Positions 3,885-49,437 of a stretch of 64,000 bases of DNA are shown one piece after another. Made by a program: the position numbers and the translations under genes. How positions within the stretch are numbered: the first letter of the stretch is position 1; each line of letters starts with the position of its first letter. This stretch comes from Negativicutes bacterium. Its GTDB lineage: Bacteria; Bacillota; Negativicutes; JBAXTZ01. The notes below the pieces were generated by a model that saw nothing but the letters and a program-made list of their open reading frames with translations, was not told where the DNA came from and made no database searches. Location: the NCBI GenBank assembly GCA_041666525.1, contig JBAYGT010000001.1, positions 334,426 through 398,425 of the forward strand. Reading direction: 5' to 3'.

Positions 3885-3902
3885 CTGCACCTCGTTTTCT
3901 TG

Positions 3903-17308: not shown

Positions 17309-17399
17309 TGGCGGAGTGGAGAGGATTTGAACCTCCGCCCCAGTTTCCCGGGCTAACGGTTTAGCAAACCGCCCTCTTGAGCCACTTGAGTACCACTCC
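17309..17399 (-). tRNA. tRNA-Ser (anticodon GCU)
   Basis: Reverse complement GGAGTGGTACTCAAGTGG...GCGGT-TTGCTAA-ACCGT, with a long variable arm, GGTTCAAATCC T-loop and ...CCACTCCGCCA. Cloverleaf with an encoded CCA. Confidence 0.9.
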
Positions 17400-17415
17400 G
17401 TTATTGAAAGTAATC

Positions 17416-17504
17416 TGGCGGAAGGGGTGGGATTCGAACCCACGGCCCCTTGCGGGGTCACTGGTTTTCAAGACCAGCTCCATAAACCGCTCGGACACCC
17501 TTCC
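17416..17504 (-). tRNA. tRNA-Ser (anticodon UGA)
   Basis: Reverse complement GGAAGGGTGTCCGAGCGG...CTGGT-CTTGAAA-ACCAG, with a long variable arm, GGTTCGAATCC T-loop and ...CCCTTCCGCCA. Confidence 0.9.
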
Positions 17505-25073: not shown

Positions 25074-25116
25074 TCTATCTCCTTTGAAACTTTGCGACTA
25101 CAAAGCTTTGTTGCTA

Positions 25117-26268: not shown

Positions 26269-26301
26269 AACCTCTCCATTGAACCATCTTTGCCTGACTA
26301 C

Positions 26302-27390: not shown

Positions 27391-27429
27391 AATTCAACTC
27401 CAAATTGAAACTAAATTTGAGCTATTATT

Positions 27430-28413: not shown

Positions 28414-28434
28414 TCAGAGTACTCGACTGTTTGA

Positions 28435-32997: not shown

Positions 32998-34251
32998 CTA
33001 ATCAACTTGCAATCGCGGCAACGTCGACCCGCCAAAAGGCATAACGATTACTTTAGCAGCTTCTCCATGCTTGGCAAGCGCAACATCAAAGGCAAAGTCC
33101 AAATCATTATATGGCTTCATAAATAAAGCTTCTACCAACTCTGGTTTCAAATCCGAAACAAGAAATATTTCGTTTTTTTCCAACACGAGCGCAATAGCAG
33201 CGGCCTTATGTCCACCGAGAACAAATTCCCGTTTAATGCGAAAGATTAAATCACCGGGACACTGTGCCTGGAGTAACCATTCTTCAAAAACTTCTTCACC
33301 CAATCCTTCTTTGCAGGATGCCAGCAAAATTATCGTGCCGCCATCGCAGACTGCATGTTTAGCGTTATCCAAAGCTTTTTGCGCCTGATATACATTGATG
33401 TCCTTCGGCCAGCCGCCGGCAGAAACCAAAACTATATCGGCTTTTTCTTCAATGGATATCTTGTAAATAGCATCTAAAAACTCGCAACCGGCAAGATGCG
33501 CCTTGACGCAATTTCCGGCCACTGCTTTAATTATTTCTTTTTTTTCGCTCAAGACGACATTTAAAATAAAGTCCACCGGGCAATATCTTAATACTTCGTC
33601 GATATCCAACCGCACCGGATTGTCCATGATATTTCCGGCGTGCGCTGCAGCTTCCACCATTCGTTTATGATTAGCTTGGATGGCTACGCGGGTAGAAACT
33701 CCTGGCATAATCGCTTTGGCGCCGCCGCTGTAACCAGCGAAATAGTGAAACTCAATATTACCGACACAAATTCTTTTTTGAGCTTCTGCCACATGTTTAC
33801 AAATTTCCAGCGGTGTGCCATAACTAGAAATCCCCATATTAACAAAACCATTACTACCAGAATCCACACAACGGTAAGTGTCGTAGATATCCGGTCCAAC
33901 CAAATTAATCATTTCCGCCTCAGAATGATTCCGATGACTTCCCAAAGCAAACACAATAGTAATATTTTCAGTTTTCACACCGGCGAGAACCAATCTGCAC
34001 AATAACTGCGGCAAAATAAGTTTATTGGGAACCGGACGAGTTATGTCACTAGTGACTATGGCAATTTTATCTTCCGCGCTAAACAATTCCTCGATTGACT
34101 GCGATTCAATCGGGTTGTCCAGCGCCCATTCGATTTCATCTTCATTAATCAACCCTGTTTCGTATTCATTTGGCGTAAGGATTTGCAAAAGGTTTATGTC
34201 CGGTATATCAATAATTTTTTTCTCTTTGCCAAAATTCAGCGTGATGTTCAT
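32998..34251 (-). CDS. LarA-family nickel-pincer-cofactor-dependent 2-hydroxyacid racemase/epimerase (DUF2088)
   Basis: 417 aa with ALGSHRNH and FHYFAGYSGGAKAIMPG (the Lys context for cofactor tethering), characteristic of lactate racemase homologs. Confidence 0.75.
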   Translation of the reverse strand: MNITLNFGKEKKIIDIPDINLLQILTPNEYETGLINEDEIEWALDNPIESQSIEELFSAEDKIAIVTSDITRPVPNKLILPQLLCRLVLAGVKTENITIVFALGSHRNHSEAEMINLVGPDIYDTYRCVDSGSNGFVNMGISSYGTPLEICKHVAEAQKRICVGNIEFHYFAGYSGGAKAIMPGVSTRVAIQANHKRMVEAAAHAGNIMDNPVRLDIDEVLRYCPVDFILNVVLSEKKEIIKAVAGNCVKAHLAGCEFLDAIYKISIEEKADIVLVSAGGWPKDINVYQAQKALDNAKHAVCDGGTIILLASCKEGLGEEVFEEWLLQAQCPGDLIFRIKREFVLGGHKAAAIALVLEKNEIFLVSDLKPELVEALFMKPYNDLDFAFDVALAKHGEAAKVIVMPFGGSTLPRLQVD

Positions 34252-34310: not shown

Positions 34311-36227
34311 TTAACGCACAAAATCGACAGGAGAAAATTCGAACGACTGGACATCTAACCAGGTAGTAAGGTTGAAAAAAGCATTATATGTTCCGCGGGG
34401 CAAAGGAGTATTAATATTAAACTTTAAGTCATCCAACGAACTGATATTAATTGTCCCGCTATCTACTTCTACAACTTTTTCGTCTGCTCCAATCTGTTCT
34501 TGTATCAAGGTAATTGAATCTCCGGGTTTAACCTCATAAATATTAATTCCGCCTTGTGCTGCAACCTTCATATTAAGCACGGTACCATTGGGATATTCAG
34601 AACTTACCAGCACCATCAATGCACCACTGCTTACTTCGCCTTCGTGGTTTATTTTCACCGGTAACATAAATTGTTCGGCACCGGTGGTTCTGTTAACCCC
34701 GGACGGAGAAGGCGTGGTCACATTGTAGCCGTTTACCGTCCACCATTGTGGCTGTCTAAAAGTCGACAACACGCCAGTAGTCGGGTCAATCACGGCGCCG
34801 GCTTTTGTGGAATAAAACACTCCGTCTTTCACCAGCAACAAATCCACATTGCGCACCCAGGCAATATCTTCTTTTTGGACGACAGGTTGATCACTACTGT
34901 TTTTGTTAATGCGAATTTTTTCCTGGCGTTTGCTTTTGATTTTTGTGGCAAATTCATTCGTAAATTTTAAATACTCATCATCGTAGCCAATGGTCTTATA
35001 TATATTTTGGTTGTCTGCCATAACTTCGTCGCTCGCTCTTAATGGACAATAAATTGACAATCCGTAACCCAAACGGTTAAGTCCCTCACCCTGAAGAATC
35101 ACGTTGTCCAGCAATCTGTCAATTTCTTTACCCTGACTCTCACTAACATTGGCTGAAAAACCAAACAGGTCGACTAAGTCGTGCGCCGAACTGTCTTCGG
35201 TAGTGCCAAAGGACTCAGCCTGAGCGCGGGCTTTTACCAACGCCAAAAAGCCGGAATCAGTTTTCAGCATACCCGAAAAGCTTACTGCCATTTTACCAAT
35301 CCCGGAATTCAAGTCATCAATTTTGGACATGTCAATTAACGACGCAGTGGCAGCGTCTTTTTCCCGGGTTTTGTCCTTTTCTTTCCAGGACTGTTCCAGC
35401 CACTGTTCGCGTTTATCCATATAAGTATTAACTATACATTCGCCTATTGTATCATTTGCAGCCTGCGGGTTTTCTACCAGCCACCCCAGCCACTCCTTCC
35501 AAGCCCAACCAGTCGCCACATCTTCAGACGCTACCAGATACCGCCCTTCGCTTTTTAGTGAATTGGCAATTTCTACTTCAGCGTTAAGACAGGTATCAAA
35601 ACTAATAATGTCCAGCGCATTGCCGGTGCTCGCCCTTGCTGATTTTATTGCCTGTTTAATAGCGTTAAGGCCCATCGCTGCCTGTTCAAAATTGGCATCA
35701 GCGCCGATACCCCAGTTGCAGCCGCCGCCATGCGCCCACATCACCAAAATATAGCGGTCTGCCGGATAACTTTTTTCACCCCAGACAATGAAATCTTGCA
35801 GGGTTTTCGCTTCGGCCATCGATATTTTCCCGGGAGTGCCTAGCAGCTTAATACCGTCGTTGTCTTTGTCAGCAGCCACTATCAGGTATCGTTGCACAAG
35901 CGAGTTGCTGATGTTTTTTTCAGGAATTTTATCATTGTACCACCATTTAGTGCTGCCGCCGGTTTGCACCAGTACCTTAACCTTGTCGCTGGCACCTACA
36001 CCGCTATTTATCATATTATTGATATCATTAGTTGCCATTCCATTGTTTCCCTCAAGATCAGTGCCAATTATGTAAACCAAGACCGTAGTTTTTCCGGCGT
36101 TTTCACTGAGCACCGGATTATTGCTCGACGGTGCATTGAAATTATTTTGGTTTTCAGCAAAAACCGGTATACTTACCAGACTAAAAAATAATGCAAAAAT
36201 TACTAAAGTCAACGCTATTCTTTTCAT
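34311..36227 (-). CDS. Secreted clostripain-like cysteine peptidase (family C11) with a C-terminal extension
   Basis: Signal peptide MKRIALTLVIFALFFSLVSIPVFA. Has the His-Gly and Cys dyad contexts (VMWAHGGG, ISFDTCLN) typical of C11/clan CD. About 200 additional C-terminal residues are of unknown fold. Confidence 0.7.
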   Translation of the reverse strand: MKRIALTLVIFALFFSLVSIPVFAENQNNFNAPSSNNPVLSENAGKTTVLVYIIGTDLEGNNGMATNDINNMINSGVGASDKVKVLVQTGGSTKWWYNDKIPEKNISNSLVQRYLIVAADKDNDGIKLLGTPGKISMAEAKTLQDFIVWGEKSYPADRYILVMWAHGGGCNWGIGADANFEQAAMGLNAIKQAIKSARASTGNALDIISFDTCLNAEVEIANSLKSEGRYLVASEDVATGWAWKEWLGWLVENPQAANDTIGECIVNTYMDKREQWLEQSWKEKDKTREKDAATASLIDMSKIDDLNSGIGKMAVSFSGMLKTDSGFLALVKARAQAESFGTTEDSSAHDLVDLFGFSANVSESQGKEIDRLLDNVILQGEGLNRLGYGLSIYCPLRASDEVMADNQNIYKTIGYDDEYLKFTNEFATKIKSKRQEKIRINKNSSDQPVVQKEDIAWVRNVDLLLVKDGVFYSTKAGAVIDPTTGVLSTFRQPQWWTVNGYNVTTPSPSGVNRTTGAEQFMLPVKINHEGEVSSGALMVLVSSEYPNGTVLNMKVAAQGGINIYEVKPGDSITLIQEQIGADEKVVEVDSGTINISSLDDLKFNINTPLPRGTYNAFFNLTTWLDVQSFEFSPVDFVR

Positions 36228-36364: not shown

Positions 36365-36399
36365 AAAAAAATAAAGCTTCCGAAGAACGGAAGCTTTAT
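36365..36399 (-). terminator. Rho-independent terminator closing the iol operon
   Basis: Minus strand ATAAAGCTTCCG-TTCTT-CGGAAGCTTTAT followed by TTTTTTT. Confidence 0.8.
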
Positions 36400-36412
36400 T
36401 AATTGATTAATC

Positions 36413-37312
36413 TTACAAACCTGTTTCAGCGTGTATGTATTTGCGCGCCTTGATCGCATATTCTAAGGGATTGGCTTTCACAGGATCTTGCTCAGCTTCG
36501 ACCAACATCCAGCCGCCATAATTATTCGCTGACAGCACCCCGAACACCGCCGGAAAATCAACACAGCCATCACCGGGAACTGTAAATACGCCGGCAATAA
36601 CACCCTGCAGAAAACTCATTTTTTCGGTCTTTACCTTCGCCAAAACGTCCGCTCGTATATCTTTCAAGTGAACATGCTTTACCCGTTTGATATGTTTTTT
36701 CAATACTTCGGTCGGGTTCTCGCCGGAAAAATAGAAGTGACCGGTATCAAACAACAAGAAAACTTTTTCCTGATCAGTGTTTGTCATGAGCCGGTCGACT
36801 TCGGCAGCCGTCTGTACTCCCGTTCCCATGTGATGATGAAAAGTAACGGTTATCCCTCTCTGAGCTGCCACGTCGGCCAGTCGATTCAGTCCATCGCAAA
36901 GCTTCGTCCACTCTTCGTCGGAAAAGATTGGTTTGTTATCAAATATCGCGGTGTTCATTTGCCCTTGAATACTGTGGCTTTGTTCAGAAATCCCTACACG
37001 GGTGGCTCCCATAGCAGCCAAGAAATCAACCTGTTTGATAAATTCGGCTTCGACTTCGGCGTAAGGCCGAGTTGCCAAGAAAGACGAAAACCAAGCGTTG
37101 CATATCTGTAGTCCGCGCAAATCTAACGCCGCTTTTAAAACCCTAGTATCCCGAGGATATTTACTGCCAACTTCACAGCCCGCGAAACCAGCCAGCGCCA
37201 TTTCACTGACACATTGCTCAAAAGAAGTGCTCCCACCTAACAAGTGCGGCACGTCGTCGTTCGTCCAGGCAATCGGTGCGATTCCCAGCTTCACTTCGTT
37301 TTTTGTAAACAT
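36413..37312 (-). CDS. iolE: Inosose dehydratase (myo-inosose-2 dehydratase) IolE
   Basis: 299 aa, colinear with B. subtilis IolE ([40 protein letters not shown]). Confidence 0.9.
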
Positions 37313-37362
37313 TTTTCCTCCAAAATTTCATTTTTACAGCCTTGACTCAGGGTTAATGCCAC

Positions 37363-38373
37363 TTATTGTTGAACTTTGACCGGTTTTCCAGTGCGCGCGG
37401 ATTCGGTAGCGGCAATTGCGATCAATACCGGTTTAAGCCCATCCAAGCCACAGACTGGGGTCGGGCTATCGTTTGCTACGGCTTCAAAAAATTCTCGCAT
37501 TTCGTTGGCAAAGGAATCCATATAGCGTTCCAGGAAGAAATATTTCGGTTTCTCTGCTGTTACTCCGTCGTTATTGCTGATTACTAACGTTGACAATGTA
37601 TCGTTTTCGGTGTGAATTCCAGCTTTAGTTCCTAGCACTTCGATCCGCTGATCGTAGCCATAAATTGCTTTGCGGCAATTATCAATCAATCCGATTGCAC
37701 CGTTGGCAAATTTCAACGATACTAACGCCGTGTCAATGTCACCGGCTTCGCCGATTGCCGGGTCAACGGTACAAGCAGCGTTAGCGTAAACTTCAACAAC
37801 TTCGCTGCCCGTCAAATAGCGCGCCATGTCAAAATCATGAATGGTCATATCAAAAAACATGCCGCCGGAAACTTTTACGTACTCCACCGGGGGCGGAGCC
37901 GGATCGCGCGAAGTTATTTTAACGATTTGCAATTCACCGACGCGGCCATCCACTATTGCCTGACGCGCAGCGCGGAAATTATGGTCGAAACGGCGATTAA
38001 AGCCAATTTGGAATTTTACTTTGGCTGCTTCGACTGCTTCTAGCACTGCTTGAATACGATCGACATCATAATCAATCGGTTTTTCGCAGAAAATATGTTT
38101 GCCGGCATTGGCCGCTTCGATACTAATCGGAGCGTGGGTATTGGTCGACGAACAGATGATAACGGCCTCAATCGCCGGATCGTTGATGATTTGTTTATAA
38201 TCAGTGTAGGCAACTTCGATTCCTAGTCCTTTAGCCCAATCCCGTTGACCGTCAATAAACGGGTCGGCAACCGCTTTAACAACAACATTTGGGAAATTTT
38301 TGACAATGTTCTCAGTGTGCAATTTGCCAATTCGTCCAGTACCAATGATTCCAATAACTAGTTTTTTGTTCAT
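37363..38373 (-). CDS. iolG: Gfo/Idh/MocA oxidoreductase, probable inositol 2-dehydrogenase IolG
   Basis: N-terminal Rossmann motif IGIIGTGRIGKLH and FCEKP. Sits in an operon context with iolE/D/B. Confidence 0.7.
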   Translation of the reverse strand: MNKKLVIGIIGTGRIGKLHTENIVKNFPNVVVKAVADPFIDGQRDWAKGLGIEVAYTDYKQIINDPAIEAVIICSSTNTHAPISIEAANAGKHIFCEKPIDYDVDRIQAVLEAVEAAKVKFQIGFNRRFDHNFRAARQAIVDGRVGELQIVKITSRDPAPPPVEYVKVSGGMFFDMTIHDFDMARYLTGSEVVEVYANAACTVDPAIGEAGDIDTALVSLKFANGAIGLIDNCRKAIYGYDQRIEVLGTKAGIHTENDTLSTLVISNNDGVTAEKPKYFFLERYMDSFANEMREFFEAVANDSPTPVCGLDGLKPVLIAIAATESARTGKPVKVQQ

Positions 38374-38434
38374 AATTTTTTCCTACCTCATATTTATTTC
38401 TTAACTAACCTTTTTCTGTAATAATCAGATCCAA

Positions 38435-40294
38435 TCAATACTTTCGCGCCTTCGCCAATTCTGCTTTCATTTCGCTGCTTGCGGCTAAGACTGAGTTTTT
38501 GGCGTTACATTCCGGAACACCGACATGCCACCAGGCACCATAACCGCCAGTCATCGTTTTCGGCAAGACCTTAATGTCAATCAGTGTTGACCGGGTTTGC
38601 TTCTTTGCATCCATCAGTGCAGCAAGTAACTCCTCGGCATTTGTGGCGCGATAGGCAATCACGCCCATACCTTCAGCAATTTTTGCATAATCAGTCTTAA
38701 TGTACTCGCCATCCATTCTACCACTGAGCTCGCTACGATAACGAAACTCGGTACCAAAACTGCCAATACCCATAGCACACTGTAAATTGTTTATGCAGCC
38801 AAATCCCCAATTGTCAAACAACAGTACGTTTATTTTGGCATGTTCCTGTAGCGAGGTAAATAATTCAGAAGATGCCATCTGAAAACTGCCATCGCCGACA
38901 AAAGTATATACTTCCTGTCCACTGTTTGCCGCCAGTTTCGCGCCAAGTGCACCGTTTACTTCATATCCCATAGTCGAAAAACCATATTCCATATGGTAAG
39001 TACTAAGCTGTTCACTGCGCCAAACCCGCTGCAAATCACCGGGCAGACTTCCGCTTGAACCGACCGCGATGTCCCCTGGATTCAGCATTCCGGCAATTAC
39101 TCCTAATGCCTCCGTCTGAGCAAAACCATTTTCACATTTAATCGCATATAACCGCTGTAATTCAACTTCCCATGCAGTTTGTACTTCTTCAATCTCGCCG
39201 GCATAACCGGCGCAGTATTGTCTGCCAATCAGTGAATCTGTTAGTCCTCGCAACGCCATCCGAGCATCAGCTTCGACGCTGACTTCTGCATCCAACTTGT
39301 GACTGTCAAAATCATTAACGTTAATCGTTACAAACTGCACCGCTGGGTTGCAGAACAACGATTTCGATGCCGTAGTGAAATCGGAAAACCGCGTACCGAT
39401 ACCAATTACGACATCGGCTTCTTTCGCGATGGTATTTGCCGCCAAATTGCCGGTTACACCGATACCACCAAGATTGTAAGGATGTTTCCAGCTGACCGCG
39501 CTCTTGCCGGCTTGAGTTTCAGCAAAAGGAATATTGAATTTTTCGGCAAATTCGGCAAGTTCAACTCCTGCTTCAGAATAAACTACACCGCCACCACAAA
39601 CAATTAGCGGCTTTTTCGCATTGACAATCAGTTCTGTAGCTGCTGCAATCGCCCGCGCCGTCGGCATTCTCCGATCGATATTCCAAACGCGCCGGCGGAA
39701 AAATTCTTCCGGATAGTCATAGCTCATCGCTTGCACATCCTGAGGAATTGCCACAGTGACCGCACCGGTCGCTGCCGGATCGGTCAATACCCGCAAGGCG
39801 TTCAACATCGCCGTCATCAGTTGTTCCGGACGCTCCACGCGATCCCAATACTTTGACACTGGTTTAAAAGCATCGTTGCAAGTAATCGCGGCGCTGTGCG
39901 GATTTTCCAATTGCTGTAATACCGGATCAGGCTGACGGCTGGCGAACGCATCACCCGGTAGCAACAACAGCGGAATCCGGTTGACAGACGCGCAAGCGGC
40001 GGCAGTAACCATATTCATCGCCCCCGGCCCGATGCTCGACGTGCAAGCAATTATTTTACGTCGCCGCGACTGTTTGGCAAACGCCATTGCCGCCAACGCC
40101 ATACCCTGTTCATTCCGCCCCTGATAAAACCGGATATCGCCGCGATAGGCTTCGAGCGCCTCGCCTAAGCCAACTACGCAACCATGTCCAAATATTCCAA
40201 ACACGCCATGCACAAACTTGGTTTCAACACTGTCAAATTCTACATACTGGTTATCCAAAAATTGCAGCAACGCCTGTGCCATTGTCATTTTCAT
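38435..40294 (-). CDS. iolD: 3D-(3,5/4)-trihydroxycyclohexane-1,2-dione acylhydrolase IolD (ThDP enzyme)
   Basis: Start set to the ATG at 40294 (AAGGAG upstream), giving [21 protein letters not shown]..., colinear with B. subtilis IolD. Has the ThDP motif GDGSF...N. The 60-aa extension in the track has no support. Confidence 0.9.
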
Positions 40295-40307
40295 AAAATT
40301 CTCCTTT

Positions 40308-41105
40308 TCAGCAATCGTAGGGCCAAATCTTGGCATCCTTTTCGAGTACCCAAGTATGTTCCGGCACAAAAGTTGGCGTAATATACGGATTTCCGTCCAG
40401 GTGACGAATCGCCCAGATATAATACATCGCGTAGCCTGGAGCAGTAGTCTGGGGATGTGTCTCGCCGCGAACAATTTTCACCGTGTCATTATTGCGGAGT
40501 TTGACCACATCTTCGCCAAGCTCGCAAAAACCATAACCATTTTCCGGCAGAAATTTATAGAAATAAATCTCCGGCTGCGGATGATGGTGCGGCGGATAAC
40601 TCGACCATTTTCCTGGAAAATCAATTACCTCGCCAATGACCAGCTTCGAATACGGCGCATTACTATAATCGAATACGGTCCGCACAATTCGTGTCGACGT
40701 CTCGCGCATCGTTCCCTGTCCGCGCTTTTCCGAAGCACATTCACTCGGTGGATAAAGTTTGGCAGAAAACTCCGTGTCATTTTCGGTACGGGTTATGCTG
40801 ATTTCGCTGTTGGCGCCTACCCCGGTTACTGTAACGCCGACATTCTTCGGAACGTGGAGTACCCAGGGGTCACAGTCAAAACAATTTTCCCGGCTGATCG
40901 TTTCAGTCTTTCCTGACCAAGTTAATCGGACTTCACCGCTAATCAACAAATAGGCCTTCTCGAGCAGACGATTGTCGGCATAACTCATACCGGCCGCCAG
41001 GCGCAATATACCGAAATCCATCAGCGTATTGTTTGTTTGTTCGTCAACTGTTGTAATAGTAGTATAGCCGTATTGCAGTGGTTCGTGCTGTCGGATCCGT
41101 TTCAT
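40308..41105 (-). CDS. iolB: 5-deoxy-glucuronate isomerase IolB
   Basis: 265 aa with the cupin motif [11 protein letters not shown] and a C-terminus ending in [10 protein letters not shown], as in IolB. Confidence 0.85.
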
Positions 41106-42355
41106 CGCTTCCCCTTTTTCATCGCTGTAATAAGCGGCATTTCAACGCCGGATAAAAACCGTACCATTGCCCCGCCGGCGGTGCAAACATAATTTATTTT
41201 GCTAATATCAATGAATTTTTGCGCGGCGGACACGGTATCGCCGCCTCCGATAACCGAATAGCCTTTGGCTTCAGCGATTGCTTTCCAGATTTCGCGGGTA
41301 CCGTTTTCGAACAGCGGATTCTCGTAGATACCTGCTGGGCCGTTCACAAAAATTGTGCCCGCTGACTGCAGTTCGCGCTTGAATATTTCGATAGTCTTAC
41401 TCCCCATATCCGCGAACAACGCTTCTGCCGGCAATTTCTCTATCGCAATTTCTGCACGTTTTCCCTCTAGCTCATATGCCAAGTCCTGAGGAAAAATTAT
41501 CCGGTCGCCGAAACGCGCCAGGTAGTCTTTGGCAGGTGCAACGAATACATCTAGAGAACGGTCGCTGATAAATTTAGCGTTTTTTTCGCCGAGATCGTAT
41601 CCACTCGCCATCAACATAATATTGCCGGTCACACCGCAGGTCAGAATTCTATCAGCACTGCCATTTTCCAACACTTGCTTCATCATACCAAAAGCATCGC
41701 TGATTTTTAATCCGCCAAGCACAAACACCGCCGGACGTTCCGGGCAGCGCATAACTTTGGTCAGCGCGGTAATTTCCTTCATCATTAGTTCACCGCCGCA
41801 GGACGGCAGTACTTCCTGAAAAGCCACCATCGACGGCGCGTCGCGGTGGGCTGCGGCAAAAGCATCATTGACATATAAATCAAACAACGGCGCCAGTTTA
41901 CGTACCAGCCATGTCTTAGTCATTTCGTTTGCCGTCAGCTTTACAGCAGCTTCGAAAGACGAAACTTCCTCGGTCAAATAGCGCAAATTACCAAGAAAGA
42001 TTATTTCGCCCGGCTTCAGTTCCTGAACCGCCGCCAGCGCCGCCGGGCCGCAGACATCGTCGATGTATTTAACCGGATGCCCGAGTTTTGTTCCCAGCTT
42101 TTCTGCATGTTCATTCATTGCAATCAAATTATGGTAGTCCAGCGTATCGCCCTGATGAGCAATTATTGCAATCGCGCAATTTTGCTCAAGCAGATATTTA
42201 AGAGTTGGCAAACTTTTGTCAATACGATTTTCGCTGGTGATTTTCCCGGTCACAGGATTAATCGGCGAATTTACATCCAAACGCAACAATACTTTTTTGT
42301 TGCACAGATCGATATCACTCATCAAAGCGATACCAGTTTCGACTCTCACTTCCAT
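41102..42355 (-). CDS. Archaeal-type phosphoglycerate kinase homolog
   Basis: 417 aa with PGK motifs RLDVNSP, IIAHQG, GNLRY..EE, NDAFAAAHR and GGGDT. Its stop overlaps the iolB start (ATGA), and its start overlaps the GAPDH stop by 10 nt. The start could alternatively be the internal ATG at 42322. Confidence 0.8.
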   Translation of the reverse strand: MEVRVETGIALMSDIDLCNKKVLLRLDVNSPINPVTGKITSENRIDKSLPTLKYLLEQNCAIAIIAHQGDTLDYHNLIAMNEHAEKLGTKLGHPVKYIDDVCGPAALAAVQELKPGEIIFLGNLRYLTEEVSSFEAAVKLTANEMTKTWLVRKLAPLFDLYVNDAFAAAHRDAPSMVAFQEVLPSCGGELMMKEITALTKVMRCPERPAVFVLGGLKISDAFGMMKQVLENGSADRILTCGVTGNIMLMASGYDLGEKNAKFISDRSLDVFVAPAKDYLARFGDRIIFPQDLAYELEGKRAEIAIEKLPAEALFADMGSKTIEIFKRELQSAGTIFVNGPAGIYENPLFENGTREIWKAIAEAKGYSVIGGGDTVSAAQKFIDISKINYVCTAGGAMVRFLSGVEMPLITAMKKGKR

Positions 42356-43368
42356 TTACCTAACCCCAAATATTTATTAGTTTCGGCAACGCCGCAGTCT
42401 CGACGCTCCTGCATTCCCATAAGAGCGCGAATTCCGTCAATAGTCTCCGGAATAGTGACCGCTTCTTGAGGAATATTTATTGCAAACATGATATCGTCAC
42501 CACTATTTACAATCGTCTCATCCCAAACAGCAATTTCGTACATATCACCGCGCGGATTACCAAGATCACGAGCATAACGGAACAACGATGCATTGCCTAA
42601 GAACCCGTCTTCAAGCTTCACAATACGAATTCGGTCATGCTCAGCAAAAGCTTCCAACACTTCTTGCTTACCAATTTTTTGCTTCGGCGTGGCCAGCACC
42701 GTAATGATATGCCCGTGGGTTATCGGAGTGTGCACCAAAATTCCAGTTGCGTTAACATGTGGCATGATCGTCATCAGATCCAACGCCTGATGGCTCGGTG
42801 CTTTATCGACTTGGAGCGCATTAGTCAAACCGCGGTGATAATCACCAGGATCGGCAACGCGGCGAATAATTGTTATTGCGACCTTTTCGATACCGTATTT
42901 CCTGTCCAGACAATCAACCGCGCGAATCAGACCGGTTGTGTTGCAAGACGTGAGCTTGAGAAAATCTGCACCAACCCCTTTTTCAAAATTGGCATAACCG
43001 TGAAAAAACACATCAGCTACAGAGTTTTGTTCACCCCCTTGGAAAATTGCTTTTTTGCCGTATTTCTTATATAGTTCCTTGTTCTTCGCACCAACACCGG
43101 CTGATGTGGCATCGAGTAACACGTCACACTGCTGCACGAGATCTTCCAACGTGCCGCTAACAGGAATATTAAGGGCGGCAAACTGCGGTTTATTTGCAGG
43201 AACTGCTAAAAACAAGTTATAGGGCATGCCTTTTTCTCTTAATGCCCGCACTGCCAGTGTTGGCGATACATCCGCGACACCGACCAACTGCATATCGCCT
43301 TGACGTGCAACACCATCTGCCAACCGTTGACCGATTACTCCATAACCAACTACTCCAACTTTTACCAT
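42346..43368 (-). CDS. Type II (archaeal-type) glyceraldehyde-3-phosphate dehydrogenase homolog
   Basis: MVKVGVVGYGVIGQRLADGV, AIFQGGE, active-site SCNTTGL, RRVADP, PSHQ and EIAVWDE are colinear with archaeal GAPDH (for example the Methanothermus type). Start at the ATG at 43368 (GGAGG upstream). Confidence 0.85.
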   Translation of the reverse strand: MVKVGVVGYGVIGQRLADGVARQGDMQLVGVADVSPTLAVRALREKGMPYNLFLAVPANKPQFAALNIPVSGTLEDLVQQCDVLLDATSAGVGAKNKELYKKYGKKAIFQGGEQNSVADVFFHGYANFEKGVGADFLKLTSCNTTGLIRAVDCLDRKYGIEKVAITIIRRVADPGDYHRGLTNALQVDKAPSHQALDLMTIMPHVNATGILVHTPITHGHIITVLATPKQKIGKQEVLEAFAEHDRIRIVKLEDGFLGNASLFRYARDLGNPRGDMYEIAVWDETIVNSGDDIMFAINIPQEAVTIPETIDGIRALMGMQERRDCGVAETNKYLGLGKWK

Positions 43369-43384
43369 AAAATCCTCCAAAATA

Positions 43385-44658
43385 TTATTGTTTTTCTTGT
43401 TCTAACTTAACCATTTTATCCCGCAGCAGACAGCTGCTGGCGAAACCAACCGCTGATGCCACAACCATTAACATAAAAACGTAACTATATCCTTGTTTGC
43501 CAGGAAATTCATCAATCAACCATCCTATCAGCCAATACGTCCAAAACGCCGGCGAATAGCCGATAATTGATGCAATCGACATCGCCGCGCCGCTCATTTC
43601 GTGCGGTACACCCATCTCGCCGATTGGTGCGAAATAAACGCCACGCAACATATAGCAGGCTATCGATACTATGACAAACAAAATCATCAACGGCCAAGCA
43701 AATGTTTGTTCAACAGGCATCGCAGTTATCACCAGCGTAACCAGCCCAAGCAGTAGAAAAAACACCCGCATTAAGTGCGCTGAAGACTGAAATACAGTAT
43801 CACCCATCAATCCGCCAACCGGACTAGACAACATTCGTACTCCTGAAGAATTCATAAGAGCGAAAAATGCGATCGTGGATAAAGGCAGTTTGTAAACATC
43901 CTGCAAAAACGGCGCAAAATACATCAAACAAATGTAAATGACGTACACGCAACCGGCATTGACACCAATCAGCCAGACACTTCGCATTTTTGCTGCTTGC
44001 AGCAAACCAATCGATGCTTTCTTGTTTTTTTCGCAATTATTGGCACCGGTTATTCCATCTGGAGGTAGCACCAACCAGGCAACAACTGCAGCCACGGACA
44101 TCAAAACAATATTTATCGCCACCGCCGCCTTGATTCCGAACAGCGATTGTCCCAACCAACTGATCGCCGCAACTACAATAAGGTTAGTTACCAACTCCAC
44201 GACACCGCGAACCAATTCAAGCGCGCCGAAAGCGGTTGCCTGTTTGTCATCAGGGGCGATGCAGCGTACGCTGCGTAGAACCGCTGTCCAAAACACCGCT
44301 TCTTTAGTAACTCCGAACACACAAAATATCAGCACCAGCGTTGTATAACCGACATTGAACAACAACAGCGCACTGAGCAACGCAGTAATTAGTGTATTAA
44401 CCAATAGCAGCCAGCGGTTAGAAAACCGATTCACCAGCCAGCCTGCCGGTCCGTACGCCAACAACTGCACAATACCAGTCAACGAATATAAGAATCCGAT
44501 TTCGGCGAATGACACGCCCAGCATCTCCCGATAGGAGTTAAACACAACATTACGCATTGCATCAACTGAATAAATCAACTGACTGCAGAGCGCGACCGCG
44601 ATGAACCTGATTAATGTCGTCCGATCAAAACCGAGTTTCTTAATAATATTCATTGCCA
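43385..44658 (-). CDS. MFS transporter
   Basis: About 12 TM helices with MFS-like loop motifs. The start is ambiguous among 44668 (TTG), 44658 and 44653 (ATG). Confidence 0.7.
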
Positions 44659-44696
44659 TCAACCGCAAACCGATTATTCATCTTCACCAACAATTG

Positions 44697-45926
44697 CTAT
44701 TTTTTCGCAGCCAATCGTGCGATCGTATTTTCTCGCACCATCTCAGGTGTAATGTCCGTCTTACGGGCGATGCCAGAATCCAAGGCGCATTTGGCTACTG
44801 CTGCTGCAACAGCCGGAGCTACTCGCAAATCAAAAGCCGCCGGAATAACATAATTTTCGTTCAACCCATCACTTTCAGCTATTGAAGCAATCGCCATCGC
44901 AGCTGCTAGCTTCATTTCTTCAGTAATTTGAGCTGCCCTTACATCCAGCGCGCCGCGGAATATCCCCGGAAACGCCAACACATTATTAACCTGATTTGGA
45001 AAATCCGAACGGCCGGTTCCGACAATGCGCGCGCCACCGGCTTTGGCATCATCCGGCATGATTTCTGGCGTTGGATTTGCCATCGCAAACACAATAGCAT
45101 CTTTATTCATGGATTGAACCATTTCCTTGTTGATCAATCCCGCCGCGGATACTCCGATAATAACGTCAGCTCCGCTCATGATTTCTGCAAGACTACCATC
45201 ACGGTTGCCAAAATTAGTAATTTTCGCTAGCTCAGCCTGGGCAGAATTCGCTGCATTTGTTTTGGTAACAGCACCTTGTTTGTCGCAAGCAACGATGTTT
45301 TTTGCACCGGCTCGCAGCAAAAGTTTCATTACTGATATTCCGGCAGAACCGGTACCACTGACAACAATATTTACTTCACCAAGGCTTTTTTTGATTACTT
45401 TTAACGCATTCATTATGCCAGCAAGAACAACTATTGCAGTACCATGCTGATCATCATGAAAAACCGGGATGTTGCAAATTTCCTTGAGTTTACTCTCAAT
45501 GTAGAAACATTCCGGAGCTTTGATGTCCTCAAGATTAATTCCACCCCAAGTCGGTTCCATTAGTTTTACGACTTCAATAATTTTATCCGGATCTTTAGTA
45601 TCTAGACATATCGGAAACGCATCGACATCAGCAAATGCCTTGAACAGCACAGCTTTTCCTTCCATAACCGGCAACCCGGCACCAGCGCCGATATCTCCCA
45701 AGCCGAGCACCGCTGTTCCATTGGTTACAACGGCAACCCAATTACCCTTTGCTGTATAGTCATAGATTTTATCGAAATCGCGATTTATTTCCAAACAAGG
45801 TTCCGCTACGCCGGGAGTGTATGCCAGGGTCATATCTTCACTGGTCTTGACCGGCACTTTACAGTGCAAAGCGATTTTTCCCTGATTGTCTTTGTGAAAC
45901 TTTAGCGCGCGCTCTTTTAGTGTCAT
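44697..45926 (-). CDS. NAD(P)-dependent malic enzyme (short prokaryotic type)
   Basis: 409 aa with [32 protein letters not shown] and GTGSAG. Confidence 0.85.
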
Positions 45927-45936
45927 TGTTACCTCT

Positions 45937-46770
45937 TTATTTCGTCATATACCTTGTAATCATATCGTCAGTGTAGCGCTTGCCGAGCGCTATCGTTTGC
46001 TCAGCATCCAATTCCCAGTATTCTGGCCGAAAAAGCTCGATGGAAGCCATTTCACTATATCCTATTTCCTTCAAAGCTCCGAATATTGCTTCGAGATCCA
46101 CCGCGCCGGCTCCCGGCCAAACTCGATGATTATCACGCAACCAGCCATGTGGCAAGTCTTCACAGTCATCCAGATGGAAAACGAATATTTTCTTCGGATC
46201 GGCCGTTTTTAGCGCCGCGATTTTCGATTTCATGGCGTGGAAATGGAAGCAGTCCAAAACTATGCCCACATTATTCAAGCCAACCTGCTCGACAATCTTG
46301 TAAGCCTCTTCAAAACAGTTTACTGAACAATTCGGATAACCGACAAACTCAAAAGCCAAATCAACATTGTACCCCGCAGCAATTGCTCCCAGTTCGCGCA
46401 ACCGGTTTACTGACTCGGTAGCAATTTCGGTTAGGGTTTTATCGCCAACATCAAAAGTTGGCACAACAACAATCTTATGACAATTAATTTTAGCGCCGGT
46501 TTCGCAGAGAAATCTCAGATCGGCGAGTATTTGAGCGTACCCGACCTCATCGCGAAAAATTATGAACTCCAGCGCATTGAATGCGTAAGGTTTGAGATGA
46601 GATTTTTCAAAAAAATCCATCAACTCTTTCACCGTATACATTTGCAAATATTCGCGAAGTTTGTCAAGGCGGATTTCGATGTAATCATAGCCGTGTTTTT
46701 CGCAAAGTTCCAAATCTTTCAGCAAGGTGCTGTTATTTAGTGTAGTAGCCTGATTAAAACAAGTTTTCAC
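45937..46770 (-). CDS. Xylose-isomerase-like TIM-barrel protein (sugar phosphate isomerase/epimerase; IolI/IolH-like)
   Basis: 277 aa with a GTG start after AGGAGA. The fold-family pattern includes GYDYIEI, conserved His/Asp/Glu positions (HFH, HLDD) and IELF. Confidence 0.65.
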   Translation of the reverse strand: MKTCFNQATTLNNSTLLKDLELCEKHGYDYIEIRLDKLREYLQMYTVKELMDFFEKSHLKPYAFNALEFIIFRDEVGYAQILADLRFLCETGAKINCHKIVVVPTFDVGDKTLTEIATESVNRLRELGAIAAGYNVDLAFEFVGYPNCSVNCFEEAYKIVEQVGLNNVGIVLDCFHFHAMKSKIAALKTADPKKIFVFHLDDCEDLPHGWLRDNHRVWPGAGAVDLEAIFGALKEIGYSEMASIELFRPEYWELDAEQTIALGKRYTDDMITRYMTK

Positions 46771-46785
46771 AGTTTGTCTCCTAAA

Positions 46786-48210
46786 TTATTGTTCGTGTCC
46801 GAGTTCAAGAACCGGACGGCCATTCTCAAGATTTTTCTCAATAGTTTCGAGCGAAACTCCTTTGGTTTCCGGTACATAGAATCTGGTGAATAATATTACC
46901 ACTAAACACATTCCGCCATACAGCCAAAATGCAGTAGCAATACCAAACACGCTCAGTATCGGAAGAAACGTCATCGATACAACGAAGTTGGCCAACCACT
47001 GAATTCCCGACACAAAACTCATACCAATACTACGGATTTTCAATGGATAAATCTCGGAAATTATCAACCAAAACAGTGACCCAATACTAACCGCGTAACC
47101 AGCAATATAAGTTACCATAAGCACCACTGACATAACTTTCGACAACTCTGACACCTGCCCCTCAGCGTTGTACGACAGAAAGCCAAGAACCATCAGACTC
47201 ACAAAGGCTACAAGCATACCGTTTAACATCAGCTTTTTACGTCCCCAGCGATCGACGGTAAACATCACGAATATTGACGCGAAAAAGTTGACTAACCCCA
47301 TGCCAAAAGTAGCGAGAATCTCAGCGCTCGCACCTGACAAACCAACATTTTTGAAAATATACGGTCCGTAATACATCACTGTATTGATACCAACAAACTG
47401 CTGCAGAATACCCAACGCCAAACCAATTATCAACACCGGACGAGCTGTTTTGGAAAACAGTTCTCTGTAACCGCCGTGTTGAATTTTAAAGCTCTCTTCA
47501 ATTTCTTGTATCTCTGGTTGAACACGATCAGCGTCGCGAATCTTTCCAAGAATTGTAATTGCTTGAGCCCTACGGCATTTCATCATTAGCCAGCGCGGTG
47601 AATCAGGTAGAAAAAATGCTCCCAACAACAGTATCAGCGCCGGAATTATCGCAACTCCTAGCATCATCCGCCAATTACCGCTCTGCGTAAAATAATAATC
47701 CGAAAGAAACGAAATCGCTTGTGCCCCGGTTATCGCGACACCATTAAGCATGACCATCGTACCACGTTTCTCAGGCACGGATATTTCCGCAATGTAAAGC
47801 GGCACAGTATAAGATGCTATACCAATAGCTACACCTAGTATGAACCGACCGACGGTGAGCACTTCCGTATTATTAGCGAACGCACACATCAATGTACCGA
47901 CAATAAAGGTTATCGAACAATATATTAATGTCATCCTCCGGCCAAATTTATTAGTCAGAACGCCGCTGGTTATACATCCAAAAAAAGCCCCAAGAACAGT
48001 TGCGCTTACGATCATACTTATTTGCAGAACTGTCGGTTTAAAAGCTTCCTCAATAAATGATAAAGCGCCCGATATCACACCCGTGTCGAAACCGAACAGA
48101 AAACCGCCTACTGCAGCCATAACAGCAACAAACCACATAAATCTACGAACTTTGGCATCCTTGATTGAATAATTGCTAACTGAACCCTTGACAATTTTTA
48201 TTTCCGCCAT
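46786..48210 (-). CDS. Sugar-porter-family MFS transporter (IolT-like inositol/sugar:H+ symporter)
   Basis: GRR motif (KFGRRM), PDSPRWL and PETKG, which are the sugar-porter signatures. Start at the ATG at 48210 (GGAGGG upstream). Confidence 0.8.
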   Translation of the reverse strand: MAEIKIVKGSVSNYSIKDAKVRRFMWFVAVMAAVGGFLFGFDTGVISGALSFIEEAFKPTVLQISMIVSATVLGAFFGCITSGVLTNKFGRRMTLIYCSITFIVGTLMCAFANNTEVLTVGRFILGVAIGIASYTVPLYIAEISVPEKRGTMVMLNGVAITGAQAISFLSDYYFTQSGNWRMMLGVAIIPALILLLGAFFLPDSPRWLMMKCRRAQAITILGKIRDADRVQPEIQEIEESFKIQHGGYRELFSKTARPVLIIGLALGILQQFVGINTVMYYGPYIFKNVGLSGASAEILATFGMGLVNFFASIFVMFTVDRWGRKKLMLNGMLVAFVSLMVLGFLSYNAEGQVSELSKVMSVVLMVTYIAGYAVSIGSLFWLIISEIYPLKIRSIGMSFVSGIQWLANFVVSMTFLPILSVFGIATAFWLYGGMCLVVILFTRFYVPETKGVSLETIEKNLENGRPVLELGHEQ

Positions 48211-48234
48211 TTTTCCCTCCACGGCATAGCCGTA

Positions 48235-49437
48235 TTACAATTTATTTTTACCGATACTTGACAGCGCCCGATCTGAATCCAAAACCAAGTGCGCCGCACC
48301 AAGCAAACCGGATTTACGCCCTAATACTGCTGCCTTCATTTCAACATTGAATGGCAATATCTGTTTGATTTCCCGGGTCATAAACTTAATGCCTTCTCTA
48401 CCGACTATGGGCATTTCGCCGCCCAACACTACCAACTGCGGACTGATAACCGATACCATCGCCGCAACAGCATATGCCCAATTGCGCAAAATATCTTCCC
48501 AAAATTCGCGCGCATTTTTATCCATCTCGGCCAAATTACGCAGTTGACATAGCAAACTCGAATTATCTTCCGGCACGATCGGTAACAATGCTTTCAGTTT
48601 CTTGTCTAAAAAAAACCGTTTGCGAATTGTGCGTGCCGAATAATTCCCTTCAAATATTCCGCCATGCCCAATTGCCGCGTTCTCACGTTTACCAAACATT
48701 AAATAGCCAATTTCTCCAGCCATTTCTCCAAACCCTCTGAACAACTGACTATTAACAATAATTCCCGCGCCGATTCCGCTGCTTACATTGATATAAATCA
48801 TATCATCAACATCTTGTCCAATACCGGCATTATGTTCACCAAGCGCCATAAGATTTGAATCATTTTCCACAAATATCGGTAATTCGATCCGCTTTTGCAA
48901 TTCATCAACAATGTGCACACCCTGCCAACCTTTTACTGGAGTGAATAACATTTGACCATCACTCTGCCGAATTGCGCCTGGGATACCAAATCCTAATCCC
49001 AGATATCGGTCAACACGTCTGCGATTGACATCAATGAAAGCATTCACATTGCGGCAAATTTCATCCAACAGTTCGACTCCATATAATTCATCGTCAATCA
49101 CTGCAAATGATTCAACTTTCGTGGCGCCGGAAAAATCCATTATCGACATTTCCAAACCATAGCTATTATAGATTACACCAACAATTCCACCGCCTCTAGG
49201 ATTAAGTTTCAACATAGTCGGTTTCCGGCCACCCGTCGAATCTCCGGTTCCAATTTCCACCAACCAACCTTCACCAATCAATTCGTCCACCAGCGATGAA
49301 ACAGCCGGCTTACTAAGGCTTAACTCACGAGCCAACATAGCCCGCGATAATTCTCGATGCGCACGCACCGCACGAATGATACTACTCCTGTTAAGTTGTC
49401 TCAGCAATGAAGAATTTGCAGTTACAATTTTGTTCAT
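48235..49437 (-). CDS. ROK-family transcriptional regulator (N-terminal HTH plus sugar-kinase-like domain)
   Basis: 400 aa with an HTH region (SRAMLARELSLSKPAVSSLV) and ROK motifs (NDSNLMALGE, GIGAGII). It is the first gene of the iol-type operon. Confidence 0.8.
   Translation of the reverse strand: MNKIVTANSSLLRQLNRSSIIRAVRAHRELSRAMLARELSLSKPAVSSLVDELIGEGWLVEIGTGDSTGGRKPTMLKLNPRGGGIVGVIYNSYGLEMSIMDFSGATKVESFAVIDDELYGVELLDEICRNVNAFIDVNRRRVDRYLGLGFGIPGAIRQSDGQMLFTPVKGWQGVHIVDELQKRIELPIFVENDSNLMALGEHNAGIGQDVDDMIYINVSSGIGAGIIVNSQLFRGFGEMAGEIGYLMFGKRENAAIGHGGIFEGNYSARTIRKRFFLDKKLKALLPIVPEDNSSLLCQLRNLAEMDKNAREFWEDILRNWAYAVAAMVSVISPQLVVLGGEMPIVGREGIKFMTREIKQILPFNVEMKAAVLGRKSGLLGAAHLVLDSDRALSSIGKNKL

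Follow-up and report, generated by a model that had tools for sequence, protein, structure and literature searches.

A candidate kinase- and aldolase-free route of myo-inositol catabolism in anaerobic bacteria, with paralogs of transketolase, archaeal-type GAPDH and PGK

An operon in a 64,000-nucleotide stretch of DNA from a Negativicutes bacterium (contig JBAYGT010000001.1 of assembly GCA_041666525.1, positions 334,426 to 398,425; the whole stretch is called the window here) combines genes of the upper inositol pathway with a malic enzyme and a pair of genes that resemble archaeal-type glyceraldehyde-3-phosphate dehydrogenase (GAPDH) and phosphoglycerate kinase (PGK). We consider it fairly probable that this gene cluster encodes a variant of myo-inositol catabolism in anaerobes that uses neither the kinase nor the aldolase of the classical pathway, and proceeds instead via a transketolase and D-malate semialdehyde. 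The window is part of a metagenome-assembled genome, and its sequence is carried only by DNA runs from groundwater metagenomes. The operon arrangement is not due to chance, as it recurs across phyla.

In the proposed route, IolG, IolE, IolD and an IolB-like isomerase would convert myo-inositol to 5-dehydro-2-deoxy-D-gluconate (DKG). Written from the ketone end, DKG would read CH2OH-CO-CHOH-CHOH-CH2-COO-, with the 3S,4R configuration of fructose, and could thus be regarded as the carboxylate analogue of xylulose-5-phosphate, in which -CH2-COO- stands for -CH2-O-PO3. A specialised split transketolase, which in our best explanation is encoded in the operon in most relatives, would then move the C1-C2 glycolaldehyde unit of DKG to an acceptor of the pentose phosphate pathway. 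The remainder, OHC-CHOH-CH2-COO-, would be 3-hydroxy-4-oxobutanoate (D-malate semialdehyde), a carboxylate analogue of D-glyceraldehyde-3-phosphate (GAP) with the same hydroxyl configuration. With NAD+ and phosphate, the GAPDH paralog would oxidize this aldehyde to D-malyl-1-phosphate, a mixed anhydride at the carboxyl group beside the hydroxyl, and the translationally coupled PGK paralog would pass the phosphate on to ADP to form ATP and D-malate. A nickel-dependent racemase would convert D-malate to L-malate, from which the malic enzyme of the operon would form pyruvate; in a few relatives, a D-malate/tartrate dehydrogenase would take the place of both. Such a route would spend no ATP on activation and gain one ATP by substrate-level phosphorylation.

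The stereochemistry of this scheme is our own derivation. The D configuration at C4 of 5-deoxy-D-glucuronate means that oxidation after transketolase cleavage should give D-malate. A D-malate product would therefore explain both the presence of a racemase beside a malic enzyme, which we take to be L-malate-specific, and the replacement of these two enzymes by a decarboxylating D-malate dehydrogenase in a few genomes. In this model, every conserved gene has a task and every step an enzyme, with the exception of the transketolase in the window.

The recurrence of the genes was examined at the genome level. A scan of one genome per species found the GAPDH-like gene in at least 575 species genomes, from which 80 loci were kept with their flanks. 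Neighbourhoods were counted in 83 distinct loci, which were searched with the window proteins, the split transketolase and an isocitrate-dehydrogenase-family protein of Azotosporobacter soli; neighbouring open reading frames (ORFs) were also clustered de novo. Homologs of the GAPDH-like protein with 72-94% identity are abundant in anaerobic bacteria, and identity across phyla is 72-82%. The 83 loci belong to five phyla (Bacillota, Chloroflexota, Spirochaetota, Atribacterota, and Synergistota), and the carriers include Clostridia, Negativicutes, Flexilinea of the Chloroflexota, many Spirochaetota, Atribacterota, and Synergistaceae. The PGK-like gene accompanies the GAPDH-like gene in 77 of the 83 loci. 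A LarA-type (Mar-like) racemase is found in 47, a malic enzyme in 29, and a D-malate/tartrate dehydrogenase in 3, so that any of these three malate enzymes is present in 55. The split transketolase occurs in 32 loci and iolD or iolE in 35. Sugar ABC transporters and regulators of the LacI or DeoR type also recur nearby. The recurrent core is thus composed of transketolase, GAPDH-like protein, PGK-like protein, malate racemase, and malic enzyme, and is often joined to upper iol genes.

Every predicted step is encoded in one row in Caloramator sp. E03, for which the closed genome of a cultured isolate is available: ABC transporter, LacI, malic enzyme, GAPDH-like, PGK-like, TktN, TktC, IolB-like, IolD, IolE, IolG, and racemase. 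Domains of IolC, IolJ and IolA were not found in this complete cluster either, as in the window. Transketolase and racemase genes also occur together in the closest long relative (83% identity).

The PGK-like protein provides the clearest residue pattern. It is an archaeal-type paralog that matches the Pfam family over its full length and reaches no NCBIfam equivalog cut-off. Among solved structures it scores 277 bits with P. horikoshii 2CUN and 207 bits with the T. maritima enzyme. In canonical PGK, the 3-phosphate is held by Arg65, Arg122 and Arg170, and the bridging oxygen by His62 (PMC7729029). Arg65 is replaced by Asp or Ser in all 69 PGKs that partner the GAPDH-like protein (the window protein reads HQGDT at this motif), while the rest of the basic patch, His62, Arg122 and Arg170, is retained in all 69. 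Asp23, Asn25, Arg38, Lys215 and Asp218, which serve catalysis and the contacts with the carboxyl and 2-OH groups, are also conserved throughout this set, with one exception (Lys215 to Arg). The partner proteins form two classes that are about 40-46% identical, HQGDT (to which the window protein belongs) and HQGSD. Both classes lack Arg65 and share the same gene context, and the GAPDH-like partner is 72-82% identical throughout.

To place this substitution, 12,981 PGK relatives were retrieved from a search of 1.8 billion representative proteins, and the 120 nearest full-length sequences were compared. Position 65 is Arg in 100 of these, Lys in 3, and Asp or Ser in 10, and the last are mostly those closest to the window protein. 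In a crude neighbour-joining tree, eight of the ten PGKs without Arg65 fall in one clade and two lie elsewhere; we claim neither strict monophyly of the proteins that lack Arg65 nor a dated transfer from archaea. On the basis of its sequence and context, the PGK-like protein is proposed to be an ATP-forming D-malyl-1-phosphate:ADP phosphotransferase.

The split transketolase shows a comparable change. All 28 cluster-linked C-terminal subunits read GSDPGVxAx(Y/F)NGGTHMP where the split transketolase of Carboxydothermus and human transketolase read xxHxGxxxGEDGxxxQ. Numbered as in E. coli, all 28 have Asp for His461, Tyr or Phe for Glu468, and Asn for Asp469. Lys is frequent in place of Arg358, as is Cys or Ala in place of Ser385; Arg520 and His473 are retained. 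We take His461 to be a phosphate ligand and Asp469 to be the residue that reads the hydroxyl configuration of the substrate.

The GAPDH-like protein belongs to the archaeal (type II) family, and its closest solved structures are archaeal, P. horikoshii 2CZC and M. fervidus 1CF2. Its start codon is the ATG at 43368, which is preceded by GGAGG; a TTG further upstream is not the start. The window protein retains Cys142, Arg169/170 and His218. For a residue comparison, 71 members of the clade were aligned with four archaeal structures. The motifs SCNTT, RR and THGH, which hold the catalytic Cys140, Arg167/168 and His219 (M. fervidus numbering), are conserved in 71 of 71. At three other positions all 71 members share a substitution: His194 to Gln and Lys33 to Asp, where all four archaeal structures have His and Lys, respectively, and His299 to Pro. 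Thr258 to Asn is likewise uniform, along with a few further changes. Lys33 is the residue that specifies NADP, so its replacement by Asp predicts that the clade probably uses NAD+ rather than NADP+. His194 is part of the other phosphate-binding site (His193/His194), presumably the site of inorganic phosphate. Taken alone, the GAPDH substitutions are mild. In its setting, the protein is proposed to be an NAD-dependent phosphorylating D-malate-semialdehyde dehydrogenase.

The transketolase, GAPDH and PGK look-alikes all carry, throughout the clade, replacements of residues that touch phosphate in their canonical counterparts. We lean, a little less firmly than for the inositol route itself, towards a broader statement: anaerobes of at least five phyla may run a shadow of transketolase, GAPDH and PGK in which carboxylates replace phosphate esters, including a new substrate-level phosphorylation and a job for malate racemases.

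Biochemical data are available for one member of the clade. The three annotated GAPDHs of Clostridium (Pseudoclostridium) thermosuccinogenes were expressed by Koendjbiharie and co-workers (PMC6543838). NAD+-dependent activity was seen with both type I enzymes, one of which is the glycolytic GAPDH that is expressed at a high level. For the type II protein CDQ83_07070, neither NAD+ nor NADP+ supported activity on GAP, and the authors noted in 2019 that there was no functional evidence for the type II class in bacteria (PMC6543838). CDQ83_07070 is 80% identical to the GAPDH-like protein of the window. It heads a cluster in the order LacI, GAPDH-like, PGK-like, TktN, TktC, IolB, IolD, IolE, and IolG.

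The malate enzymes link the pair to pyruvate. The racemase of the window lies two genes downstream of the operon, outside the span first reported, and passes the cut-off of the LarAH6 equivalog model; in most relatives, the racemase is near the GAPDH/PGK pair and often directly adjoins it. With the same model, NF052593 (cut-off 500), a homolog from locus L038 scores 580 bits, and the spirochaete homologs score 378-403, which is under the cut-off. Malate racemase activity has been shown biochemically for the LarAH6/Mar2 family, which is known from Thermoanaerobacterium thermosaccharolyticum (PMC7583248), and the in vivo role of malate racemases has been left open (PMC7583248, PMC11770544). In the two loci where it was tested, the D-malate/tartrate dehydrogenase exceeded the TIGR02089 cut-off. 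Between the iol terminator and the racemase of the window lies a minus-strand gene for a 638-aa Peptidase_C11 (clostripain-like) protein (34311-36227), which has no NCBIfam match.

An earlier note on this DNA, made from its letters alone, had described the operon as eleven co-directional, tightly packed genes, and this description was confirmed gene by gene with Pfam and NCBIfam: all eleven lie on the minus strand at 36413-49437 and have the identities first given (Table 1). The gene calls of the public record agree with its statement that gaps are at most 61 nt with two overlaps. In transcription order, the first five gaps are 24, 15, 10, 43 and 16 nt; GAPDH and PGK then overlap by 10 nt and PGK and IolB by 4 nt, and the later gaps are 13, 61 and 50 nt. 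The strong terminator that the note placed after the operon was also found. The archaeal type that it assigned to GAPDH and PGK holds, as both are nearest to archaeal solved structures.

Table 1. The inositol operon of the window, listed in the direction of transcription, with its terminator and the downstream racemase gene.
Feature	Coordinates	Strand	Domain or model evidence
ROK-family transcriptional regulator with N-terminal helix-turn-helix, first gene of the cluster	48235..49437	-	Pfam ROK 137 bits
Sugar-porter MFS transporter	46786..48210	-	TIGR00879 381 bits vs cut-off 238; 474 aa
Xylose-isomerase-like TIM-barrel protein	45937..46770	-	PF01261 115 bits
Malic enzyme, small type (L-malate to pyruvate + CO2)	44697..45926	-	PF00390 112 bits + PF03949 86 bits
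Second MFS transporter	43385..44653	-	PF07690 alone
Archaeal-type (type II) GAPDH paralog	42346..43368	-	NF003251 403 bits vs 185; TIGR01546 291 vs 233
Archaeal-type PGK paralog	41102..42355	-	PF00162 359 bits, full length
KduI/IolB-family cupin	40308..41105	-	PF04962 185 bits
IolD, thiamine diphosphate-dependent ring-opening hydrolase	38435..40294	-	TIGR04377 911 bits vs 715; 619 aa
IolG, inositol 2-dehydrogenase	37363..38373	-	TIGR04380 473 bits vs 355
IolE, inosose dehydratase	36413..37312	-	TIGR04379 411 bits vs 290
Intrinsic terminator closing the operon, 3' of iolE	36370..36400	-	13-bp stem, 5-nt loop, T-run
Nickel-pincer malate racemase, LarAH6/Mar2 type	32998..34251	-	NF052593 554 bits vs 500

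The upper half of the pathway is well supported by family assignment. IolG, IolE and IolD all exceed their NCBIfam equivalog cut-offs, and together with the divergent IolB-like isomerase they would take inositol to DKG, as had been proposed. The assignment of IolB itself stood in part: the cupin belongs to the KduI/IolB family, and its score falls under the IolB equivalog cut-off. It is probably a divergent IolB, i.e., a 5-deoxyglucuronate isomerase, and the ortholog of Azotosporobacter soli also stays below this cut-off (113 bits vs 205). The ORFs of the window were screened for domains if they were at least 150 aa long, which covered all except two short ones. Among these, Pfam detected no PfkB kinase (IolC), class II aldolase (IolJ), or aldehyde dehydrogenase (IolA), which bears out the reported absence of the canonical downstream enzymes.

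Of the remaining genes of the operon, the ROK protein has MarR_2 and IclR helix-turn-helix matches and is NagC/Mlc-like in NCBIfam, under the cut-offs. Judging from its context, the sugar-porter transporter is probably an IolT-like inositol importer. The TIM-barrel protein has only weak, sub-threshold matches to IolO and psicose 3-epimerase, and homologs occur in just three other loci (L026, L028, and L045); it is probably an accessory inosose or keto-sugar isomerase or epimerase of the IolI/IolO kind. It was also considered as a substitute cleavage enzyme and rejected, as its family comprises isomerases, epimerases and dehydratases and as it co-occurs with the transketolase in Fonticella (L028). 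The second MFS gene is restricted to the lineage of the window among the loci compared.

Several points weigh against the proposed route. The first and main one is the cleavage step. No transketolase was found in the window, either by tblastn with the TktN and TktC proteins of the clusters or by Pfam on ORFs of at least 150 aa, a search that covered the window out of a contig of 453 kb. The organism would thus need a transketolase gene elsewhere in its genome, or would have to rely on its housekeeping enzyme. The transketolase is likewise missing from 14 of the 35 iol-linked loci, of which several are spirochaete loci or short contigs. The second point concerns the isomerase, which scores 93 bits in the IolB equivalog model (TIGR04378; cut-off 205), and the third the racemase, which in the window is a separate transcription unit beyond the terminator and the protease gene. 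A fourth point is substrate recognition. In archaeal GAPDH, the Arg167/168 pair binds the phosphate of GAP (PMC12041015). This pair is intact in the GAPDH-like protein, and its sequence alone is therefore compatible with GAP as the substrate; the two arginines could hold a carboxylate as well as a phosphate. Moreover, the negative assay of CDQ83_07070 used E. coli crude extract and may reflect poor expression, which makes it weak evidence. At 19 loci, the GAPDH-like gene has none of the partner genes nearby, and in about a dozen of these the GAPDH/PGK pair stands alone. Finally, the fate of the C2 unit is an assumption, namely that it reaches acceptors of the pentose phosphate pathway, and the activities of the lower branch are predictions that we infer from gene context, residue patterns and chemistry.

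Some loci suggest that inositol is not the only feed into the module. In L044, L073 and L085, a GABA (4-aminobutyrate)-transaminase-like gene and a sigma-54 activator are directly upstream of the pair, with no iol genes nearby, and in L044 and L085 a malic enzyme and/or a racemase follows the pair. The transaminase-like gene was above the TIGR00700 cut-off in L044, the one tested. A gene of the same aminotransferase family is found in L019, some way from the pair. These contexts suggest a second feed, perhaps an omega-amino hydroxy acid. An omega-transaminase yields an unphosphorylated aldehyde-acid, and we may speculate that 4-amino-3-hydroxybutyrate would give malate semialdehyde in this way. 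In Clostridium magnum (L017) and an Acetobacterium metagenome-assembled genome (L080), a module of malic enzyme, GAPDH-like, PGK-like and racemase genes adjoins a 2-oxoacid dehydrogenase complex (E1 alpha, E1 beta, E2, and E3) and a molybdenum hydroxylase with a 2Fe-2S subunit; a metallo-beta-lactamase-fold protein and a 3-hydroxyacyl-CoA dehydrogenase are also encoded there. The pair occurs twice in C. magnum, where the other copy is iol-linked (L021). The module has the look of a general path by which a C4 hydroxy-aldehyde-acid is channelled to pyruvate and ATP is gained; inositol would be its commonest feed. Genes for TauE/SafE-family (sulfite-exporter-like) membrane proteins are present near the module in L067, L068, L076, and L078.

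The GABA-transaminase-like genes bear on an alternative, that the pair acts on another aldehyde-acid such as succinate or tartronate semialdehyde, or that it runs reductively as a carboxylate reductase from malate to the aldehyde. The reductive version would be a combination of the kinase and dehydrogenase kind, like aspartokinase with aspartate-semialdehyde dehydrogenase. GABA would give succinate semialdehyde, and such genes stand upstream in several loci; the chemistry is also reversible in principle. We nevertheless regard this alternative as unlikely, in either version, because malate-specific enzymes are the commonest partners (55 of the 83 loci) and because transketolase cleavage of DKG can give only a C4 hydroxy-aldehyde-acid. 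The replacement of Lys33 by Asp predicts NAD+, the usual choice of catabolic, oxidative enzymes, and we take the ring opening by IolD to be irreversible, so that the iol context runs downhill towards the acid.

Another possibility is that the two proteins are true GAPDH and PGK isoenzymes that were acquired from archaea and are simply expressed together with sugar or inositol catabolism so as to increase the capacity of lower glycolysis. The GAPDH-like protein exceeds the type II equivalog cut-off, the PGK-like protein has a full-length Pfam match, and the catalytic residues and the Arg167/168 pair are intact. The dozen or so loci in which the pair has no partner genes nearby would be expected of isoenzymes, and the very high conservation (72-82% between phyla) is like that of a central enzyme. 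Under this explanation, no enzyme would remain for the oxidation of malate semialdehyde, and there would be no reason for the close association with genes of malate racemase, malic enzyme and D-malate dehydrogenase. The explanation also conflicts with the loss of PGK Arg65 in every partner, compared with Arg or Lys in 103 of the 120 nearest relatives, and with the ortholog of 80% identity that lacks GAP activity in a genome with two active type I GAPDHs; we consider it distinctly improbable. The earlier note had named, as an outcome that would speak for simple housekeeping genes, that these are the only gap/pgk genes of the genome and show normal kinetics with GAP. In the close relative C. thermosuccinogenes, this is not what was found, although the crude-extract assay makes the evidence weak.

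The idea that the pair is a recruited branch of substrate-level phosphorylation had come from the same note, and one part of it survives. A role apart from housekeeping is supported by the linkage to iol, transketolase and malate genes, by the loss of Arg65 in PGK and by the inactive ortholog. The substrates proposed at that time do not fit. In that version, the pair oxidizes 5-deoxyglucuronate or malonate semialdehyde to a dicarboxylate and forms ATP; both compounds are aldehyde-acids of the iol pathway, and iolC, iolJ and iolA are absent from the window. Oxidation of 5-deoxyglucuronate would make the conserved IolB-like isomerase and the transketolase pointless, and neither malic enzyme nor malate racemase acts on its product, 5-deoxyglucarate. 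To form malonate semialdehyde takes an aldolase, which is absent from these clusters, and malonate is not a 2-hydroxy acid, so that the racemase, the malic enzyme and the D-malate dehydrogenase would remain unexplained. Neither compound is a close analogue of GAP, whereas malate semialdehyde is. We therefore judge both substrates very unlikely. The suggestion that the malic enzyme acts on a resulting 2-hydroxy-dicarboxylate fits well with a route via D-malate and the racemase. That the pair is an inactive or moonlighting relic on a mobile catabolic island, with no functional linkage, is scarcely credible, since the genes are translationally coupled and intact, with 72-82% identity over five phyla and invariant catalytic residues, and since the substitutions are specific and uniform, unlike decay.

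The route via transketolase and D-malate semialdehyde can be compared with known pathways. In the canonical iol pathway of Bacillus subtilis and Salmonella (iolGEDBCJA), the upper half is alike, with IolG, IolE, IolD, an IolB-family isomerase and a sugar-porter transporter. The lower half differs. The canonical aldolase cleaves between C3 and C4 to give dihydroxyacetone phosphate and malonate semialdehyde, whereas the proposed transketolase would cleave between C2 and C3 to give a C2 unit and, eventually, D-malate; the canonical pathway uses the IolC kinase, whereas the proposed route would spend no ATP. The 'non-canonical' inositol pathway of Dysosmobacter still involves a phosphorylated intermediate and an aldolase (PMC13311982) and in both respects differs from the route proposed here. 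The inositol route of Anaerostipes also has a different lower half, as far as the accessible part of its description goes. In Thermotoga as well, the lower half of inositol catabolism is different from the proposed one.

A further parallel is to the pentose phosphate pathway and lower glycolysis. The same protein families would act in the same order and with the same proposed chemistry, i.e., ketol transfer, oxidation of a thiohemiacetal with phosphorolysis, and ATP formation from an acyl phosphate. The proposed intermediates would match xylulose-5-phosphate, GAP, 1,3-bisphosphoglycerate and 3-phosphoglycerate atom for atom, with a carboxylate replacing the phosphate ester. The proteins are distinguished from their canonical counterparts by Asp or Ser for Arg65 in PGK, Asp for His461 and Asn for Asp469 in transketolase, and Gln for His194 in GAPDH.

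An aerobic precedent for the metabolites is the L-carnitine catabolism of Acinetobacter baumannii, in which malic semialdehyde is converted to D-malate and then to pyruvate with a non-phosphorylating aldehyde dehydrogenase (PMC11353897). This route shares with ours the malic semialdehyde and the D enantiomer of malate, and its pyruvate end is the same as in those relatives that have a decarboxylating D-malate dehydrogenase. The Acinetobacter enzyme is a non-phosphorylating member of the aldehyde dehydrogenase superfamily that yields no ATP, whereas the pair described here would conserve energy, and D-malate would here mostly be racemised before the malic enzyme acts on it. For the LarAH6/Mar2 racemases, to which the window protein can be assigned by its equivalog score, the gene context suggests a role in feeding internally formed D-malate to malic enzyme.

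Operon-encoded split transketolases with unusual substrates are also known from other catabolic pathways. The sulfo-transketolase pathway uses a split transketolase on 6-deoxy-6-sulfofructose, and D-apiose catabolism an apulose-4-phosphate transketolase. These are similar in being split enzymes that are encoded in catabolic operons and act on unusual ketoses, and in the sulfo case another anion stands for phosphate. As these pathways are generally described, they use other donors and have no GAPDH-like or PGK-like step afterwards, which sets them apart. Malate semialdehyde and an acyl phosphate of malate are likewise intermediates of an engineered pathway for 2,4-dihydroxybutyrate production, whose malate kinase and malate semialdehyde dehydrogenase derive from aspartokinase and aspartate-semialdehyde dehydrogenase. 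By its usual description, that pathway is reductive and uses the carboxyl group far from the hydroxyl, whereas the pair proposed here would be oxidative, would act on the carboxyl beside the hydroxyl, and would consist of natural enzymes.

In full-text searches of a literature collection that lacks many subscription papers, we found no paper that links inositol to these lower-branch genes; the route is also absent from a review and a genome survey of inositol use. A phosphorylating D-malate-semialdehyde dehydrogenase and a D-malyl-phosphate-forming kinase were not found described in the full-text literature either. The proposal would thus amount to a known type of pathway with a new lower branch, and three predicted new specificities inside known families.

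If the proposal is true, a new ATP-yielding pair, from aldehyde-acid via acyl phosphate to ATP, would be added to the short list of substrate-level phosphorylations, and three enzymes of central metabolism would have been retuned together from phosphate esters to carboxylates. The bacterial genes for 'archaeal' type II GAPDH and PGK would also acquire a function, and the malate racemases, the largest group of the LarA superfamily, a physiological source of D-malate. Surveys of gut anaerobes have found iolG, E, D and B to be more widespread than iolC and iolJ, for example in Megamonas (PMC13617567). The proposed route would explain inositol use by gut and sediment anaerobes that have iolGEDB and lack iolC and iolJ. 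It bears on the turnover of inositol and phytate in the gut and the environment, where screens that require iolC or iolJ would miss such users. Cultured carriers such as Caloramator sp. E03, C. thermosuccinogenes, C. magnum, and Flexilinea flocculi allow direct testing.

Several other features of the window may be mentioned, all on the minus strand. A cluster at 22546-29727 resembles the uncharacterised php-yhfSTUVWX genes of E. coli. It encodes two YhfT-family membrane proteins (PF10797), phosphotriesterase-family and YhfS-like proteins, a YhfX-like protein with an alanine-racemase N-terminal domain, and a metalloenzyme-superfamily protein. A heat-shock operon contains a gene for a 526-aa Cpn60/TCP-1-family chaperonin (1262-2842) between hrcA (2856-3890) and grpE (666-1250), which we take to match the 'archaeal-like' group III chaperonins of some Firmicutes. 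At 57779-61201, a 1140-aa fusion protein combines an alpha-amylase catalytic domain with a GH77 4-alpha-glucanotransferase, and its gene adjoins that of a phosphotransferase system EIIC protein (56516-57763). Two adjacent tRNA genes are located at 17312-17504.

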